Positions 1 to 39,665 of a DNA stretch of 64,000 nucleotides are shown piece after piece. Where the stretch lies: assembly GCA_951406725.2 (NCBI GenBank), contig OX597825.1, positions 11,842,001 to 11,906,000 of the forward strand, written 5' to 3'. Source of the stretch: Octopus vulgaris (taxonomy: Eukaryota). The notes below the pieces were generated by a model. It saw nothing but the letters and a program-made list of their open reading frames with translations, was not told where the DNA came from and ran no database searches. A program made the position numbers and the translations under genes. Numbering within the stretch: the stretch's first letter is position 1; each line of letters begins with the position of its first letter.

Positions 1-540
1 AGGCAAATATACCTAGGAAATTTGTGACGAAATCTAAATACTTTCCATCATTTTGTCATCAGCAATAATTAAATTTTGCCATGTCTCAAGAATAAATCAG
101 TTAAACTTGGTTCTAATAATATTAGGAGAAAATATTACACAAAAGCGTTTGTTGCTTATAAATTTACCGCCTAATCTAATGAAAATTTCTTTACTTTTCT
201 TTTCTTTGTTTTCTATCACATTGTCGTTAATTTAAATAGATGTTTAATTACTGTTAAATATACAGGTTAAATATGATTTTCCTATGGCCCTATAAACTGT
301 ATGCATATATTAATACGAAAAATAGGATATAATTAATGAATTAATTTTGATTTCCATATGGAAGCCATCATCATAGTACTGGAGGGAAAATTATATAATT
401 TAATTGAATGCTTCTATGAAGGCATACATCGATAATTCTTTCATAAATTCCCATCCATGAATTAAATTTGGATATATATTACTTAAATATATAGATTTAA
501 TTTGCGAAAATATGTACGTCACAACCATATTAATTTATGG
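1..540 (-). mobile_element. Highly decayed Penelope-like reverse transcriptase remnant
   Basis: Minus strand reads Q-Y-Y-D-D-G-F near 380-357 (cf. PLE RT RYxDDGF). Further downstream TATAAGCAACAAACGCTTTT resembles Y-K-P-T-N-A-F with a 1-nt loss. Many stops and frameshifts; recognised by eye only. Confidence 0.3.
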
Positions 541-1633
541 TTAATTAAATTTAAATTTAAAAGAGAAATTTTCTGGTAAGTAGTATATAAATTAGTGTGT
601 GTATATATATATATCTGTGCATATAACACAGTTATACTTATACTTGTGTACCTGTGTGTGTTTGTATATTTGTAGATATGGAACCAAGTCATGTTGTATG
701 GTAAATAAGTTCAATTCAGTGCCGTGTATTTGCGGGTCCAATTTCAGTGCGGAGTAAGTGATTGATGCGTCTCTGGTGACTAAACAAGGCACACGATTGC
801 CCAAACGGTATGATATTGAGCAGAGGATCTTTCGTCATACTTGCGTAAATAAATATACGAAAAAGCGGACACACAGCGGTTTAGCTTTTCACCTGTAGCA
901 TTCGGTCGTAGATCAGCTGAAAATAAGGTAAGATTAGGGGAAGTAAATCAAATTTTGTTTTATCTTGAGATATATATATTACTGCTAATTAAAACAAAAT
1001 TAAAGAAGTGAAACTTTAAGCCAGCGAATTGTCAACTAGCTGCGAAATAGTTAACTATTGAGTATGGCGGTGAGAGTATTGGGATCGCCGCGATGCATTA
1101 AATCATTGATGAGAGGGCAGTTCTTAAAACAAATAAACAGAGTCGAATACGCAGTTACTGTTTTCATCATTGCCTTGCTGTCCAATACACAACGCATAAT
1201 TTGATTTTACAGGTAGATTCTATCACGTACTTGCATTCAATATTCAGTCATCACTTAGTTTCTCTATGAAGTGTGCGGCATTTAAAACGTGTTACTCAGT
1301 TATTCAATAAAGAAATATGTACCACATATAATAAAAAATAACTAGATAATACAATATAAAACATAAAAGGATAATATAATACAATAAAAACTAGCTGCTA
1401 CGTAATAGGAATAGTAAGTGACCAGACACGGTATTGTGGGCCGTTACTTGACCACCGTCTGTATATAGTACAATGCGCACCTTTATCAATTAAATTTTGT
1501 ACTGAGTTAAATAACAGTGACATTCGTCCTAACAAGAACTCCCACTTTATGTTGGCAAATGATCTTTACTCTCATTCTTTCTCTCTCTACAGATATATGC
1601 ATATATAATACAAGTATATATATATGTGTGTAA

Positions 1634-1990
1634 GTGGAGGCGCAATGGCCCAGTGGTTAGGGCAGCGGACTCGCGGTCATAGGATCGCGGTTTCGATTCC
1701 CAGACCGGGCGTTGTGAGTGTTTATTGAGCGAAAACACCTAAAAGCTCCACGAGGCTCCGGCAGGGGATGGTGGTGATCCCTGCTGTACTCTTTCACCAC
1801 AACTTTCTCTCACTCTTACTTCCTGTTTCTGTAGTACCTGTATTTCAAGGGGCCGGACATGTCACTCTCTGTTAAGTGTGCACGTGTCTGTGGAGTGTTC
1901 AGCCACTTACACGTTAATTTCACGAGCAGGCTGTTCCGTTGATTCGGATCAACCGGAACCCTCATCGTCATAACCGACGGAGTGCTTCCA
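1634..1990 (+). mobile_element. tRNA-derived SINE (family A), near full length
   Basis: A-box-like TGGCCCAGTGG and B-box-like GGTTTCGATTCCC. Nearly identical to 37644-38028 apart from an internal deletion of about 29 bp. Candidate TSD ATATGTGTGTA at 1622-1632 and 1992-2002. Confidence 0.9.
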
Positions 1991-2012
1991 AATATGTGTG
2001 TAGGCACACACA

Positions 2013-2083
<71 letters not shown>

Positions 2084-2089
2084 CATATT

Positions 2090-2139
<50 letters not shown>

Positions 2140-2227
2140 TTATTAGAGACAAAACCACTATTTTGCAAAACAAACAAGGAAAGACTTAATCAATACATAA
2201 AATTTTAATAAATAGTCAAAAAAACCG

Positions 2228-2270
2228 CCACTACAATCGTTTCTTGTCTTGATCGACAATCTTCAGGTGG
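2228..2270 (-). ncRNA. Minimal type-I hammerhead ribozyme (mirror copy in left arm of the palindrome)
   Basis: Exact reverse complement of 2321-2363. Confidence 0.85.
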
Positions 2271-2320
2271 ACTTCAATAAGTCAGTTTCAAATTATAATT
2301 TGAAACTGACTTATTGAAGT

Positions 2321-2363
2321 CCACCTGAAGATTGTCGATCAAGACAAGAAACGATTGTAGTGG
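2321..2363 (+). ncRNA. Minimal type-I hammerhead ribozyme (intact core)
   Basis: Helix I CCAC(2321-24)/GTGG(2360-63); core CTGAAGA(2325-31); helix II TTGTC/GACAA with loop GATCAA; GAAA(2348-51); short helix III AC-GATT-GT; cleavage triplet GUA(2357-59). Confidence 0.85.
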
Positions 2364-2535
2364 CGGTTTTTTTGACTATTTATTAAAATTTTATGTATTG
2401 ATTAAGTCTTTCCTTGTTTGTTTTGCAAAATAGTGGTTTTGTCTCTAATAATATTTTATAATATTTTACTATAAAATTGGATTTAATCTTAAATCTGATT
2501 TTTTCCCTGTAAATTTGGATTTATTCCCTAATATT

Positions 2536-2591
<56 letters not shown>

Positions 2592-2837
2592 TCATATGTG
2601 TATGCGTAAATACAAATATATAATATGTAATATAATAATTATATAATTTATCATCTGCTTTGATTTCCACAAATCGACTTTTATTATAAATTTGATGACA
2701 TTTGTTCTTGAGACTTCCTGCCAGTAAAGTTCTGTGGTTATTCTTCAAATCAAGAACAATAAACTTAAGCAAACAAACTACGCGCACGCACACACACGTA
2801 CACACGCATTACCACACACACACATACACACACGCGA

Positions 2838-2896
<59 letters not shown>

Positions 2897-3902
2897 CATA
2901 TATATATACGTATATATATATATATATACATATAAATATATATATACATATATATACATACATACATATATATATCTGTGTGTGTGTGTTCGTATAAATG
3001 TATATATACATATGCATATGCGATCATATGATATACACATGTGAGGGATAGAGAGAGAGTGTGTGAGTCTGTGTGTATGTGGGTTTATTCAAATTTGAAA
3101 ACTATGAATGTGTTCTATTATAATTGAAAAATACTTTCGTTTGCAGACTCATAAATCAAGAGACTAACTCTTTGTTGTCAAGACATATATATATGTATTA
3201 TGAGAAATTGTTTTAAAATCTGTTTATCATTTACATTACTGCTTAATTGTTTGAAATCTGCGCAACATCTCAATTTTCGACTTACGTACGATATGAAAAT
3301 GCACAAGCAAATAGACAATTCTGTGATTTAGAATATGGTAGGTCTTGGCAAACCTTTACCAATATCACAGTCAATTGAATTCTGTGACTAAATCGTTAGA
3401 AATTGTTACGCAGCAATATTTTAATTCATGATAAACAATTGAATAATAAATATGTAATTTAAAATCTATAAGATATCTTGTAGCTTACGGAAAAGACGGT
3501 AACAATGCCTGATGGGATCCAGGAATAAATGTAAAATTATTAACTTTTCTTCCCTTTTTAATTAATTTTAAATTTCGCAAAATAACAGTTTAAAGGGTTT
3601 ATATTCCAGACATACGGGCGCGTGCGTATGTGTTTATGTGAGTGTGCTTGTGAATATACATGTACAAAAGTGTGTATTGTTTTGTAAAACTAATTAAAAC
3701 TAATATTTAGTAACATTTATTTACGAGGTAAGTTTTGAATAATCCATGAGCGTTTTTATTTTTCATATTTAAAAATGCCCGCAGAAATACAACGCATTGG
3801 CAAAGGGTTTTATGTTATTTAAAAGAGAATGTCTTGCTCTACGAGATAGCGTCTGCTGATTTTTTTATTTTATTGATGTTTCTGTATTTGCAGATCATTA
3901 AA

Positions 3903-4440
3903 ATGGAATGCCAAGTGGACAAAATTAGGCATTTTTGACATCACTCGCTTTTTGTATTTATTCGACGGGTTAAGGCCGCCGAAGGGGATTTGTATGAAGT
4001 AGGAGCAACGCCTCAAATTACAGCCCGCCGAATCAACTTCTTCACGAAAACCACAGTCAAACGACCAGAGTATTGGCAGAGGTGATGGACTGTGATAAAA
4101 AAACTGTGCTGAAACACCTTCAATCAATAGGCAATGTCCAGAAACTCGACGATTGGGTGCCACACATTTTGAGCGAAAACAACATAAATCAACGCTCCAC
4201 AATGTGATCAAAGCCGCGATTTAAGAACTTGAATGGGAAGTGCTGCCTTATCCTCCATACACTTCAGACTTGGCACGGTCGGATTTTGCTCTCTTTTGGC
4301 CGCTTTCGAACGATTTACGTGATATATCATTCAATAAGGACACGGAATTGAGGGCTTGGTTGGACGAATTCTTTGAGTCATACCGGGAAATTTCTATCTG
4401 GAAGTGTATGGGAACTTGAAAGGTAAATATCAAAGTTTTG
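3903..4440 (+). mobile_element. Internally deleted, decayed mariner (Tc1/mariner) transposase
   Basis: N-terminus MECQVDKIRHF from 3903; HTH-like VLAEVMDCDKKTVLKHLQSIG; WVPHILS at 4154 (WVPHEL motif); WEVLPYPPYTSDLARSDFALF around 4234-4296 (YSPDLAPSD motif). Most of the catalytic domain between the two motifs is missing. Confidence 0.85.
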
Positions 4441-5144
4441 TTGGTAATCTCACTTAACTGTGTTAGGTTAAGCCGTTAACTAAATGTTTAGGGAGACACC
4501 CACGATAAGGACAAATAAGACCCCAGCTTGAGTTGTCGGATAACCCGGCATTTATAAACCAAAACTTTTGGGGGAAATCCAAATATTTCATAATTGATTT
4601 TGTATTGGATTTCAAAGCTCAATTAATGCAACATTCTCTTCGTGCTTCATTTCTTCGTGTTGTAAAACTACCTCTGATTTTCAGTTATTTAGTAATTGTG
4701 CTGCTTGGGAGAAAAGGCGTTTCTTTAAAAGTATTATCTCTACTACAATATCTTTGAATGAGAAGATGAAGCTGTTCTCGTTAGGTATGTAACTGGAAAT
4801 TTTCTGCCCCGCTTCCCATTTGCTTTTGAAATAACTCACATTCTGGAGAGTACAATGACAATATGGGATTTCCATTGAGGCGTGGTTGCTAAATCTCTAT
4901 GTCAGTATGCCTACCAGTGCAAATACATCAACGTAGTATTCGCATTTCAAATTACCTCCATGGAATCAGAAATCGATCTGAACTTCCGCTTGAGGTACGC
5001 TTGGACTCGATTTCAAATTAGCCGCATACTGTCTACATTATTCTCTTTCAGATTTTGGTAAAATATTAGAGTCTAACGATTAAAACTCGCGATAAATTTG
5101 TAACATCATCATCCAACGTGTAACAGTAAAGATTATAAGATAAT

Positions 5145-5435
5145 ATTAATTTCAAATTTTGGCCCAAGGCCACACATTTCAGGGGAATAGATAAGTCGCC
5201 CCCAATGTTCAACATGTACTTATTTTATCGACCACGAAAAGATGAAAAGCAAAGTCTAACTCGGTGGATTGTAGGACAATATTATAATGCGAAAATAAAG
5301 AGTCATGTCGTCCGTCTTTACTGTCTGAGTTTAAATTCTACTGAGGTTGGGTTTGCCATTCATTCATTTCGGGGATATAATTGACTTACCACTCCTATGA
5401 GAGTGCTGGCCTTGTGCCAAAATTTGAAACCAATA
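5145..5435. mobile_element. Two decayed Nin-core SINE fragments in opposite orientation
   Basis: GTACTTATTTTATCGACCACGAAAAGATGAAAAGCAAAGTC (minus strand) is followed by CTGAGTTTAAATTCTACTGAGGTT...GGCCTTGTGCCAAAATTTGAAACC (plus strand); both resemble the 14504 family. Confidence 0.6.
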
Positions 5436-5994
5436 TTATGATCTGGAACTGAAAATATTTGATTTTAAAACATCCCTTATCGTTCTTTTATAATGCCTTT
5501 AATAACACTTTGAACATCAGAGGGTACGAGGCACAAAATTATCAAATGAAAACGTTTGTTTTTTTTTTGTTTATTTGAAACTTATTTGGATTAAATGATT
5601 TACTGCTGTAGTAACGTTTCCCTCGTTAATATTTTTCGTTTGTACTCGTCGTATGTAAATATATATTTTGTTGGAAATTGAAAGCATAAGTTTGTTTTAC
5701 ATCCTGATAATTTACAAATGATATTTTAGTTCGGATTTTATTAAAGATCAAATATAATTACAAATATATTTAAACATTTGAAGCGCGATCGAAATGTATT
5801 TTATACTAAACAAAATATTTTAATATACATTAAATTCAAACGAAATATATATACTATTCCCCTTAAAAGTGACTTCCAAGTAAGTGAAACCTCCGTTTCT
5901 CGGGAATTTACTCACGTGTACCTTAATGCATACACACAGAGAAAACAACTAAATATACATTAATCATTCTTCTTGGTAGTTATTATAGTAATAA

Positions 5995-6308
5995 GGTGCA
6001 GCATATTGCTTAGTTGTTAGAGCATCGGGATCTCAATCATGACGTAGTGAGTTCGATTCCCGGACCGGGCTGTGTGTTGTGTAATTCAGCTAGGCTCTTT
6101 TTCACATTGCTCCAGGACACTCAGTTGTAGAAATGAGTTGTGACTTCACTGGTGTCAAGCTGTATCTGCCTTTGCCTTCCCCTTGGATAACATCGGTGAC
6201 GTGGAGAGAGGACGCCGGCATGCATGGGCGACTGCTGGTCTTTCATAAAATTACCCTCGGAGACGAACTTTCTTGGTGCAAAGCCATGGTCATTCATGGG
6301 ATGAAACC
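5995..6308 (+). mobile_element. Diverged tRNA-derived SINE
   Basis: tRNA-like head with B box GAGTTCGATTCC; body similar to the 28912 copy up to AAATGAGTTG, then a different 3' part. Confidence 0.7.
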
Positions 6309-23234: not shown

Positions 23235-24270
23235 CATCATGATGACATCATGATGACATTAATGACATCATCAAGCACAGCAACATAAAAATCTTTGCAG
23301 ATGATTCCAAGCTACAGAAGGTCATAAATGAGGCGAGTGACCGGACATGCCTTCAGTCAGATCTACTGGCTGTTATCCAATGGGCAGAAAAAAACAATAT
23401 GCTGCTGAACGAGGATAAATTTGAGTTAATCCACTTTGGAAAAGAGGATGCCCTGAAACTCCCATACTCCCTTCCTTCAGGTGAAACTCTCGCGGCGTCC
23501 AACAACATCAGAGACTTGGGAGTAATTGTGGACAACAACATAAGCTGGGCCACTCATATAAACACCAAAGTTGACATGGCCCGCAGAATGTGTTCCTGGA
23601 TTCTCAGAACTTTCCAGTCGAGAGATATCTACACCATTATCCTTCTCTTCTCCACTTTTGCCCGACCCCACCTTGAATACTGTTGTCCACTGTGGTCTCC
23701 CCACACAATAAAAGGTATCATAAAAGTTGAAGCACCTCAAAGGGCAATCACAAAAAAGATAGATGGCATGACAGGCCTCGACTATTGGGGTCGACTAGAA
23801 AAGCTTAAACTTTATTCTCTCCAACGTCGTCGTGAGCGCTACATCATCTGCATGATGTGGAAAATATTCCATCAGCATTTCCCAAATGATGTTGGCATCA
23901 CCTTTAAGGTACATCCAAGGCTTGGGCCCCGTGCCATCCGCCCAAAACAAATATCGCACTCTCATCTCATAACAACAATACGGCACAATTATTTCACCTC
24001 AATTGGCCCCGCTCTCTTTAACATTACACCAAAACACATTAAAACAGAAACTGACCCTATAGGGTTCAAGAAGTCTCTGGACAGATTCCTTCAAGAAATC
24101 CCGGATAAACCCCCTACACCCGGATATGTCTCTGTAAACAATAACTCTCTACTTGAGTGGGCCATAGTGCCTAAATTCTGACTTGAAAGACTTCACCAGG
24201 TGGTGCTATTAAGTTAGACATGGCCTGGGCCAATAATGGCCGAAACCTATCAAAGTATCAAAGTATCAAA

Positions 24271-26498: not shown

Positions 26499-26619
26499 CA
26501 ACGATAAGAGATTTATTGTTGATTGTTTACACGTTTTCGAAATTAGTGGCTTTTCGTCACTGGAAAAAGGATATGTATTTGCAAAGGGAACCCACTTTTC
26601 ATCGACAATCAGTGATTGT

Positions 26620-26664
26620 CACACACTGATGATGGGTCAATACCCAGAAACTCGAATCCGTGTG
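26620..26664 (+). ncRNA. Near-intact type-I hammerhead motif
   Basis: CACACA-CTGATGA(26626-32)-TGGGT-CAAT-ACCCA-GAAAC(26647-51)-TCGA-ATC-CGTGTG. Two substitutions, one in helix III and one in helix I, separate it from a canonical fold. It lies in a short unique segment next to (TA)n. Confidence 0.7.
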
Positions 26665-34426: not shown

Positions 34427-35099
34427 CTGCATTGCTTTTAGTGACGAACTAGTAATCATCAGAGTATTGAACACAATGTCTCTCGATATTTCTATGAAAT
34501 CTATGCTCTCTGGTTTCAGTTCCGCTCCCTCAATAAATAATCTCTTATCTTTGAGAATTTGCGACTGGCAGACGATATCAGCAATGTCAAACAACCAATT
34601 TCTCTGCTTCAGTCAAATCATTGACACCCACGCCACCATATTTCCTTTTCCATGCATCATTGTCCTGAAGAGTTACGTTTTCCTATAATGGCCTCCATCC
34701 TCAAATTGGTTGCATAGATAATATTCGGGGAAATCAGTTTTATCAACTAGCCGATAAACATTATATTAAAATTCCCCAGCTTCCTAATAAGTTGTTGTTT
34801 TAATAATGCTATTCATGGCGTATGTGTGAATGAATTATAGACGATTGAAAAGGATGGTATGAAAAACCAAACTTGGAGTATTGTTTAAAGAGCTATTCTT
34901 AACTTTTAAAAAGTTACTCTCATGTGAATTTGTTGTTTACGTCTCGGTATTTTCTCATGGTTTATATAAGAAACAGCAATTGCAATAGAAAAAACACGAA
35001 AAAACTAAATATATTTAGCGAGCTATTGAAGTCGCTTTTTCAAATATGAATTATTGCACAAACAAAAAAAAATGCTATGAATATAAGTAAAACAAAACA

Positions 35100-36130
<1,031 letters not shown>

Positions 36131-37508
36131 GATAAATATATAAATAAATAACGATAATAACATTCTTACAAAAATAGCAGTGATGCTGAGAATGATGCTG
36201 ATGATTTCGACTACGGTAGCCACATAATGATGCCCTGTGGTGAAGCAGATGTTTGTAATGAGTCTTGTATAAAGAATGGACAATAAACAGAACTGTATGG
36301 AAAGTATAGGAATTTCAGAGAAGCAGCGGATATTTATTTGTGTTCGACAAAGGAAAGATATTATTCTTATATATGAAGAGAACTGTTGACCATATTAGAC
36401 GGCAAAGGATATATTATTTTCGCGGAAGTCATAAAATAAATAACGAATAAACTATTCGAAAGCGAAGAAGAGAACATGATCCATTACGTGTAGTTTCACT
36501 TCATCCGTAAAAGCCATCTCGACAACGGAATAAAGTGAAGTGTTTCGACCTATATATTTCTCTTAATTATACACGCTACACTTGGACCGATTTCCAACGA
36601 CGCATCATTACTTCACACCGAATAAATGCAGTTTATATACCTATATACACAAGAGATACACCCTCCCCAATACACACACACATAAACACACATCTACACA
36701 CATATCTACACATACTCAAGCTTTCATACACACGCTTATACACATGCACACAGACAGACCTCAGACGCATAAAAATTGCAAGCATCTATACTTTCATATA
36801 TACATGCACACAGGCACTCGTGTAGATAGATACATATATGTGTGTGTGTGTTTGTATGTGTGTGTGAGGTGTTTGTGTACATACACACACACTTATATAT
36901 ATGTAAAAAAGCGTTCTTAAGTTATAGAAGGAAATGTTTTAAAGTACAGCGACAGAGAAATATAGCAAGACGCATACAATGGTTTGTTTACATTGTAATA
37001 TATTGGAACAAGTGAACACTAAATGTCTCAGCCGAGAAAATATTTATTTCATCTCTATGTTCAGGCAACATATTAAAACAGTTTCAAATGCTACTACATA
37101 TTCGGACTAGAACATATTTGTACAGGAGCTGACAACACATTGAAGTGTTAAGAAGTGAAACAGTGGAAAGACGCGAAATTGGAAATATGGAATGATAAAG
37201 TGTTTTTCAGAAATGTTCTTTCATAACATAAAATTCGATGAATTTTATTAAAATATCCAGAGAAATAAAGTATAAGTGATAAAGTTTTCTTTTCATAACT
37301 TGTATACACTTAATAGATCTGTGTGTTGAGTACATGTTTATAAGATTCGAATGTAAACGATTTGTTTAATAAATGTAGACACACGCATTGTCGAATATTA
37401 CTGGTATGTGAAAAAGTTTGGCGTTTTGTTGCATTTCAAAATAAAAAGTGCAAACATAACTGCGCATATTTAAGTGTGCTCTTCACCATAAACTTACAAA
37501 GAGCACGC

Positions 37509-38177: not shown

Positions 38178-38674
38178 CTATATATCTATATATATATACA
38201 TATCTATGTGTACGTGAGTCTTATACTCCTGGTGCTACTGTTGAATTAGACATGATCTGGTGTAACAACGGTCTGCTCCATGGCCAATAGCGAAGAATTC
38301 AGAAAAGGATTCATCAAATAATCACATCAAACTTTTCTTTATTCAGATCAGAAATATTCCAGTTTTGCTTTTGTTCGAAAAAAAAAATTCCAGATTTTCA
38401 TGTCAATAATTCTTGGATAGGATGGTATCCTTTCGCGTCTTTCATTGACATACTGTACCAGCTTATATGAAGGCAGATATCAGTCAGCTATGCAAAGTCC
38501 CCATAGGTGTTCTCGCATAGGCCTGCTAAGCTGTCATCTTCCAGCCGTAGATCCGTGGTAGCTATATTTTGAAAAAACTGTACTTTCATTCGGTTAAAAT
38601 TTTTGCAATATAATCGATGTAATTGACTTGATTTCTCTCCTCAAATTTCAGACCAAGTGCCTATAGTACAAAAG

Positions 38675-39369
<695 letters not shown>

Positions 39370-39665
39370 GGGGGCGCATAGCTCAGTGGTTAGAATCTTG
39401 CACTCATAGTCTAGCCTTCGTGGTTTCAATTCCTAGACTGGATGTTGCGGTGTGTTCTTGAGCAAAACACTTTATCTCACCTTGCTCTGCGATCACTTTG
39501 ACACCTGAGGCCGGGTACACCGTGCACCTGTTCAGACAACGTCGATTCGTTGGAGACAGTGAGTTAATGTGCTGCACGACCATTTGATCTCCATAAACAC
39601 ATCATTTGTGCCGGTTGTTCGGCAAAACATGAACGCTGATACGTCGTCTTCGACGGGTAAGACCT
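39370..39665 (+). mobile_element. Diverged tRNA-derived SINE
   Basis: TAGCTCAGTGG A box, GGTTTCAATTCC B box, and GTTCTTGAGCAAAACACTTTAT core as in the 28912 copy. Confidence 0.7.

Follow-up and report, generated by a model that had tools for sequence, protein, structure and literature searches.

In this study, we provide evidence that a perfect palindrome in the genome of Octopus vulgaris very probably consists of two head-to-head, intron-less copies of the 5' leader of a Penelope-like element (PLE) of the Hydra clade, both taken from one spliced and capped mRNA that the hammerhead ribozyme of the element had left uncleaved. The window analysed is a stretch of 64,000 nucleotides (assembly GCA_951406725.2, contig OX597825.1, positions 11,842,001 to 11,906,000, forward strand), and coordinates refer to it unless a locus (L plus number) is named. 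A scan of the window for all spacerless palindromes returned 2134-2457 as a perfect 324-bp palindrome with 162-bp arms, exactly as claimed in a first-pass annotation made from the letters of the window, and the next 14 longest palindromes listed all belong to one (TA)n run. The palindrome is not the whole element, however, since the right arm outruns it by a one-sided tail of ~75-80 nt, to about 2540, before (TA)n returns (Table 1); in the parent element the sequence of this tail goes on for ~60 nt more to the start of the open reading frame (ORF). The arms are identical to each other, and alignment of the window arm with the leader of an intact parent copy (L091), spliced in silico as exon 1 plus exon 2, covered 247 bases and showed 1 mismatch and 2 gaps of one base each (99% identity). 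Within the (TA)n repeat a target-site duplication is unreadable.

Spliced leader copies of an intact parent element

A genome search with 2296-2530 returned 1,475 candidates; each of the best 40 scored had at least 98% identity along almost the entire query, and 36 of these 40 had an adjacent inverted arm. In 30 fetched loci the flanks differ, the 3' ends enter (TA)n and the central junction is specific to each copy. Among 175 distinct arm ends in the fetched loci, 94 stop ~165 nt from the centre (about 162-169) and 77 at ~240 nt, while 2 enter the ORF and 2 are of other kinds. The check proposed in the first-pass annotation, for copy number and for links to a PLE coding for reverse transcriptase (RT) and a GIY-YIG endonuclease, was positive on both counts. 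A perfect spacerless palindrome may also arise as an artefact of assembly or of fold-back reads, and no piece of the public contigs from four sequencing runs spans the window locus. However, the same asymmetric design is found with its own junctions at independent loci (36/40 of the best copies), the symmetry ends exactly at a family-wide end point, the arm ends are unequal and the two sides have different flanks, so that an artefact appears very unlikely, its probability being close to negligible.

Loci fetched by the tail alone include longer copies, in which an AT-rich stretch ending in TTTTAG lies right before the hammerhead, and short copies, in which a different 5' piece is joined at the same AG; in L042 and L049 this piece was found ~1.1-1.2 kb upstream, followed by a GT donor. 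In L091 the order is pseudo-long terminal repeat (pLTR), an ORF of 838 amino acids (aa; L091:1212-3725), 1,361 nt, exon 1, an intron of 1,816 nt, hammerhead, tail and (TA)n. The parent unit reads exon 1 (23 nt), intron, hammerhead, 5' untranslated region (UTR), ORF, 3' region, and again exon 1, intron, hammerhead and tail, and its intron has GT-AG ends (donor GACTT/GTAAGT, acceptor TTTTAG/ATTG, the slash marking the splice point). The ORF contains the motifs DIDNYY, GAPDS, YRDD, DKT (position 128), CxCX5C (CTCRDKSNC, 689), YIG, CxxC (CYLC, 795) and CxH (CRH, 824), and by these motifs it joins, as in endonuclease-bearing PLEs, RT with a GIY-YIG endonuclease at the C terminus in a single frame. 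Other features of such PLEs were found as well, namely a hammerhead in the pLTR and, in the inverted plus tandem arrangement of L090/L091, partial tandem pLTRs with an inverted 5'-truncated copy and a one-sided tail. The motifs also match the definition of the Hydra clade in the available part of PMC8557442: DKT and not DKG, the CxCX5C linker, CxxC and CxH are present, CCHH is absent by eye, and insertions lie in (TA)n (the window flanks and the 3' flanks of 30 loci). In place of the N-terminal RWK of the clade the parent has RIKWK at 41-45, KWK being a conservative change. A search with the parent ORF found 42 relatives at E<=1e-10, many of them with PF26215, the nearest named ones being from Argonauta and Octopus; a PDB sequence search with the same ORF gave no match. 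The linker of this ORF is rich in Asn (36% N over residues 481-620), recalling the N-rich inserts described for rotifer Penelopes in PMC3846280. On its motifs, the parent appears to be an intact Hydra-clade PLE, and the earlier view of the palindrome as a very recent PLE insertion in (TA)n with an inverted pLTR is borne out by this ORF.

The parent intron has been removed exactly from the short copies. Exact spliced junctions number 455 genome-wide, and the unspliced acceptor followed by the hammerhead gave 385 + 137 = 522 matches, the 137 being intron-bearing copies with the same one-G variant after the acceptor as the window copy. Older subfamilies, whose donors are shifted, likewise have both spliced and unspliced forms (L042 vs L054/L057; L049/L089 vs L043/L219), with removal again exact at different donors, and a further contrast (L050 vs L062/L065) is seen on the acceptor side only. 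The loci L037-L066 (e.g. L040, L041, L046, L048, L058) belong to such older subfamilies, which have the 3' end and tail in common but not exon 1, donor position or helix II; some of their short palindromes, several in number, break off before or within the hammerhead.

The two classes also differ at their 5' side. Exon 1 plus donor gave 131 matches, and all 30 unspliced exon-1 loci examined continue beyond the 23-nt exon, to points 38-1,223 nt upstream of the donor, whereas none of 83 spliced arms, in loci not chosen by their 5' end, passes the point 23 nt before the splice junction. Of 63 spliced arms reaching this limit, 35 continue beyond it with G, 14 with A, 8 with T and 6 with the genomic C (hand count), and an extra G is the expected result of copying a cap, as established for retroelements. 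The fixed limit is likely to be the cap, and the template of the short class was probably a capped and spliced mRNA, copied up to the 5' end and through an uncut hammerhead. A further possible start site, 18 nt upstream of the donor, was considered and rejected, the pile-up there being consistent with self-complementary bases.

These copies bear on the proposal, in the available text of PMC3846280, that self-priming on an antisense RNA template explains both head-to-head palindromes and intron retention in PLEs, an unspliced sense template being left possible there. While the head-to-head palindromes at inverted junctions that it predicts are indeed seen, an antisense template would not be spliced at sense GT-AG sites, as 455 junctions precisely are, and the fixed limit on the sense strand contradicts it too. 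For the short class an antisense template would be viable only if the antisense RNA came from pre-existing spliced copies, and we give it hardly any credence.

Proposed joining of the two arms

We propose that the element protein would nick both strands of the (TA)n target and that two priming sites in the 5' UTR, ~165 and ~240 nt from the centre, would give rise to one cDNA each. The two cDNAs would extend to the cap or nearly so, and a few complementary bases (TTATAA in the window) would unite their 3' ends. The outcome would be a palindrome that lacks a spacer and has only one of its arms tailed, and such short copies, having no ORF, no intron and no sequence upstream of the start site, would be dead ends. 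A PLE protein of Anolis has been described in vitro to cleave and extend both strands, and its reverse transcription to have two internal starts bounding the tail and to use uncleaved RNA (PMC11167929, available in part).

The main evidence comes from the pairing of arms. On contigs C1 and C2, whose arms are listed in full (59 spliced, 100 unspliced), the inverted pairs comprise 15 spliced/spliced, 25 unspliced/unspliced and no mixed ones, when ~19 mixed pairs would be expected if independent RNAs were drawn from a single pool; pairs that are never mixed point to two primings on one RNA. Subfamily variants agree between the arms in 30 spliced pairs. In a pattern-gathered sample, 61 of 62 short inverted insertions unite one tailed and one short arm, the arms reaching equally far 5' in 33, the tailed arm further in 19 and the short arm further in 9. 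The junction TTATAA is the same in 3/30 spliced pairs and is present in exon 1 of some intron-bearing copies, and it probably marks the overlap through which two cDNA ends became linked.

Alternatively, on the same spliced template, a single cDNA might have snapped back at its 3' end and been joined to the target near the proximal end, thereby forming the second arm. Snap-back would explain why splice state and subfamily variants are always common to both arms, including rare variants in L007, L116, L124 and L052, and it is compatible with palindromic junctions in 6/30 and with one junction with a 2-nt spacer that recurs at 8/30 loci. However, one folding cDNA cannot give a short arm that extends further 5' than the tailed arm, as found in 9/62; the long copies L087 and L090 have the ORF on the tail-less arm; the two arms of L004, L009 and L011 extend to the final 1-2 bases of the 5' limit, so that no loop would fit; and some arms that stop at the proximal site stand alone (L131, L133, L134, L137). 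The short arms reaching further 5' together with these lone arms require two separate primings, and snap-back as the general route is therefore considered unlikely.

It is also conceivable that the short form is a non-autonomous element, retrozyme-like or resembling a short interspersed element (SINE), that amplifies from its own spliced master copies, as the first-pass annotation had half suggested. Hundreds of near-identical copies would suit such an element, PLE pLTRs have been proposed as a source of non-LTR retrozymes (bioRxiv 10.64898/2026.07.22.740005), and an internal promoter is described in Penelope of Drosophila virilis (PMC2377424), both as given in the available parts of these sources. 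Against this, the junctions vary among insertions, so the palindrome is rebuilt each time and not inherited; the variants checked (one or two G after the acceptor, C/T in exon 1) are also present in intron-bearing copies; and spliced forms recur separately in several subfamilies. The window arm itself matches the spliced leader of an autonomous copy, and the fetched loci are free of tandem arrays. A separate amplifying element is thus quite improbable. The intron, the fixed 5' limit and the two 3' ends, which account for the palindrome, had escaped the first-pass annotation.

Several points weigh against the reading of two primings on one capped, spliced mRNA of a Hydra-clade PLE. The window copy is among the 33/62 insertions with equal arm reach, for which snap-back of one cDNA is possible, and the loci were collected by patterns and not at random. 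Start site, cap and splicing were all read from genomic copies, and in contigs of runs presumed to be RNA the spliced genomic copies would confound any sign of spliced transcripts. A pattern for spliced copies extending upstream of the limit gave 5 matches in 4 insertions, and among 17 arms with G beyond the limit, from the 30 loci examined, there are 12 in which this G could also belong to the opposite arm as its final base, which leaves 5 of the 17 not so assignable. Placement in the Hydra clade was by motifs alone, and a Pfam search with the parent ORF returned one sub-threshold, unrelated match. Finally, Rfam 15, a check proposed in the first-pass annotation, gave 19 hits at E<=1 on window positions 1-6000, none of them a hammerhead family. 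The four insertions that are spliced and yet reach upstream of the limit are L180-L184, of which L184 seems to combine exon 1 with the hammerhead of another subfamily.

Table 1. Features of the palindromic insertion, in window coordinates
Feature	Position	Strand	Remarks
(TA)n target, left flank	2092..2133	.	
Inverted (short) arm	2134..2295	-	Exact reverse complement of 2296-2457; spliced 5' leader copy ending at the proximal 3' end, then (TA)n
Mirror hammerhead	2228..2270	-	Predicted cut 3' of position 2232, minus strand
Central junction TTATAA	2293..2298	.	Self-complementary 6-mer
Forward (tailed) arm	2296..2540	+	Spliced leader; extends from exon 1 as far as the distal 3' end
Exon 1/exon 2 junction, parent intron absent	2312..2313	+	Mirrored at 2279/2278 on the minus strand
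Hammerhead	2321..2363	+	Minimal type-I; predicted cut after A2359; from motif and folds
PLE tail, between the two 3' ends, on one arm only	2458..2540	+	From comparison with the parent sequence
(TA)n target, right flank	2541..2586	.	

Hammerhead ribozyme and intron retention

Each arm had been described as holding a complete minimal type-I hammerhead, a description upheld by motif, folding and conservation across subfamilies, from which, and not from Rfam, the assignment was made. On the plus strand the ribozyme consists of CCAC (2321-2324), CUGAAGA (2325-2331), helix II UUGUC/GACAA (2332-2347), GAAAC-GAUU-GUA (2348-2359) and GUGG (2360-2363), and the minus strand mirrors all of these; the core CUGANGA/GAAA/UH and helices I and II of a minimal type-I hammerhead are thus all present. 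Across subfamilies CUGANGA, GAAA, GUA and CCAC/GUGG are retained and helix II varies in length, so that the other genomic copies do keep the core whose loss the first-pass annotation had named as disproof. The pair U10.1-A11.1, which it had called atypical, is indeed unlike the G10.1-C11.1 pair stressed for dimer-type minimal hammerheads (PMC4209133, as far as available), and G-C is found in no variant listed, but the position varies family-wide, with A-U, A.C, A.A and U.U in relatives. A scan of the window for the core motif gave 4 matches, namely the two palindrome hammerheads, a plausible one at 26626 and a weak one. The plausible match (26619-26664, plus strand) is a minimal type-I hammerhead of another family, with CACAC, CUGAUGA, helix II UGGGU/ACCCA, GAAAC and a predicted cut after AUC; it adjoins a (TA)n run and is probably another PLE pLTR fragment.

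Helix III is perfectly self-complementary in the variants ACGAUCGU and ACAAUUGU, and that of the window copy, ACGAUUGU, is also self-complementary with G.U. With RNAcofold the minimum free energy structure is a double hammerhead (-21.4 kcal/mol), compared with -6.5 kcal/mol for the best fold of the monomer, which agrees with the dimer type foreseen in the annotation. However, the two ribozymes of the palindrome sit on opposite strands, one transcript thus carrying one ribozyme plus its full antisense, and therefore a read-through RNA cannot make the dimer in cis. The hammerhead comes from the parent and probably works there as a dimer; at the window locus it has no evident role.

The annotation had further suggested a switch between an active ribozyme and a 162-bp double-stranded RNA, a substrate of ADAR or Dicer, or a cruciform in the DNA. 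A hairpin that is perfectly paired and predicted at -260 kcal/mol, compared with -6.5 for the ribozyme region, makes such behaviour physically plausible, and nothing points to its selection. With arms identical and 99% identity to the parent, the insertion is too young to reveal selection, the inverted form is a routine insertion product, and no host exon or transcript was identified at the locus, where no real gene search was made; a selected regulatory device is accordingly regarded as highly improbable. The palindrome of the window is a routine short product of a known kind of element, probably inert at its locus.

As to cleavage in vivo, 17 arm 5' ends fall within 2 nt of the predicted cut and 35 at 12 neighbouring positions (p ~0.02, uncorrected, from a rough hand tally). 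From this tally 19/71 rows were removed by hand, 10 of them copies with indels or deletions, 6 from outside the family and 3 duplicates; a few of the retained rows are internal deletions or jumps, and a control with the reversed pattern gave 17 chance matches. A sharp peak of 5' ends at the cut was rejected, the excess being merely modest. L092 contains a unit that begins at the predicted cut site and runs into the ORF. In L215 (G000:C8:73217600-73219200) an unspliced pLTR ending in 20 A is directly joined to a copy starting at the predicted cut, and this single locus resembles a template switch in which copying passed from a cleaved 5' end onto a poly(A) tail. The pattern for a fixed poly(A) site 40 nt past the cut matched one locus only (8 overlapping matches), so that such a site was not established. 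These copies provide indirect and weak evidence of cleavage in vivo, and most templates appear to have been uncut.

Intron-bearing copies would derive from RNA that reaches upstream of the start site, in which the intron is almost never spliced; their source would be the downstream repeat of read-through or ribozyme-processed RNA, and this unspliced downstream repeat would be how the element keeps its intron. Tentatively, and with more doubt than confidence, we suggest that the palindromes record a strong-stop step in which hammerhead cleavage switches between a dead-end palindrome and a full element. Close to the 5' end of its own mRNA, the protein would prime two cDNAs. With a spliced and capped leader, both would run off the cap and could join only each other; if the leader has been cut off by the hammerhead, the cDNA end would match the downstream repeat (or a circular RNA), and synthesis would then enter the unspliced downstream intron, rebuilding promoter, intron and ribozyme. 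Pointers to such a step are the modest overrepresentation of 5' ends at the cut, together with L092 and L215, the last a single locus; if true, it would explain intron retention, pLTR formation and the role of the ribozyme at once.

Known systems, surroundings and significance

Descriptions of PLEs already include inverted copies truncated at the 5' end, tails on one side, (TA)n as target, hammerheads in the pLTR and an intron in the 5' UTR (PMC8557442; PMC2377424), these and the sources below being quoted from their available portions. The Hydra clade, including Hydra-1_Obim of Octopus bimaculoides (Craig et al. 2021, PMC8557442), has in common with the octopus family found here an ORF with C-terminal GIY-YIG, DKT, CxCX5C, CxxC and CxH and without CCHH, (TA)n targets, the hammerhead, the inverted 5'-truncated copy and the one-sided tail. 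The family differs from the clade in KWK for RWK, in the Asn-rich linker and in its tail, of ~75 nt against a quoted norm of 30-40 bp. Compared by description only, Hydra-1_Obim has a listed length of 2,507 bp and is marked "no pLTR", whereas the present unit is ~6 kb with a 1.8-kb 5'-UTR intron.

Penelope of D. virilis (PMC2377424; PMC4209133, Fig. 2C) likewise has a start site in the pLTR, a short exon 1, a 5'-UTR intron ending right before the hammerhead and partial tandems with inverted repeats, but its copies are described as intron-retaining, whereas in the octopus family spliced junctions (455) are about as numerous as unspliced ones (522). PMC4209133 also describes dimer-type minimal hammerheads in opposite-strand pairs 100-700 bp apart, and the D. 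virilis intron as ending at helix I. With Poseidon PAc of Anolis carolinensis (PMC11167929) the family shares two internal RT starts bounding the tail, an AT-rich target, extension of both strands and use of uncleaved RNA; the PAc starts fall within the ORF, and the portion available mentions neither an intron nor spliced copies, while arms of the octopus family end in the 5' UTR. Animal non-LTR retrozymes (bioRxiv 10.64898/2026.07.22.740005) are similarly short and non-coding, with a type-I hammerhead and a PLE pLTR origin; however, they form head-to-tail tandems with a ribozyme per unit, of which no short array was found in the fetched loci, and the window insertion is head-to-head, with one ribozyme per strand, and rebuilt from an autonomous mRNA. 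Recently active Penelope-like families have been counted in an octopus, hammerheads going unmentioned in the available part of that report (PMC13282606). The family can further be set beside the L1 retrotransposon.

As in the origin proposed for the palindrome, L1 twin priming gives inversion by priming on both target strands, and processed pseudogenes lose introns and have a cap-derived G; the two parts of a twin-primed L1 cover different RNA stretches. Unlike these two parts, both arms of the palindrome span the same RNA stretch. No description of an abundant spliced class of PLE copies was found in the literature covered, some older papers lying beyond that coverage, and what is new here is a class of processed, probably cap-terminated leader copies about as common as the intron-bearing ones.

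Around the palindrome, 61 stop-to-stop ORFs of at least 110 aa in the window resemble repeats or transposon remnants, no real gene search having been made. A SINE-like repeat with a tRNA-like head lies just left of the palindrome (1630-1990) and has very high depth in all four sequencing runs. By eye, a mariner-like transposase remnant was seen at 3840-4420 and a 311-aa RT fragment resembling long interspersed elements at 23246-24181. Large trinucleotide microsatellite arrays occupy 35000-36140 and 38530-39430, in inverted orientation and ~3 kb apart. Outside the window, the right flank of L032 contains, also by eye, another PLE-like RT coding fragment straight past the (TA)n flank.

How PLEs keep their introns, how head-to-head repeats with one-sided tails arise and what the hammerhead does are questions left open in the available parts of PMC8557442, PMC3846280 and PMC11167929. 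The octopus family offers hundreds of very young insertions in two clean classes together with an intact ORF, with which the questions of intron retention and hammerhead function become testable. The spliced class indicates that, contrary to the antisense-template proposal, a sense, spliced mRNA serves as template for these copies, and the fixed 5' limit maps a likely start site from DNA copies. If transcribed, hundreds of perfect 160-bp hairpins could also supply the A-to-I editing or small-RNA pathways of the octopus.
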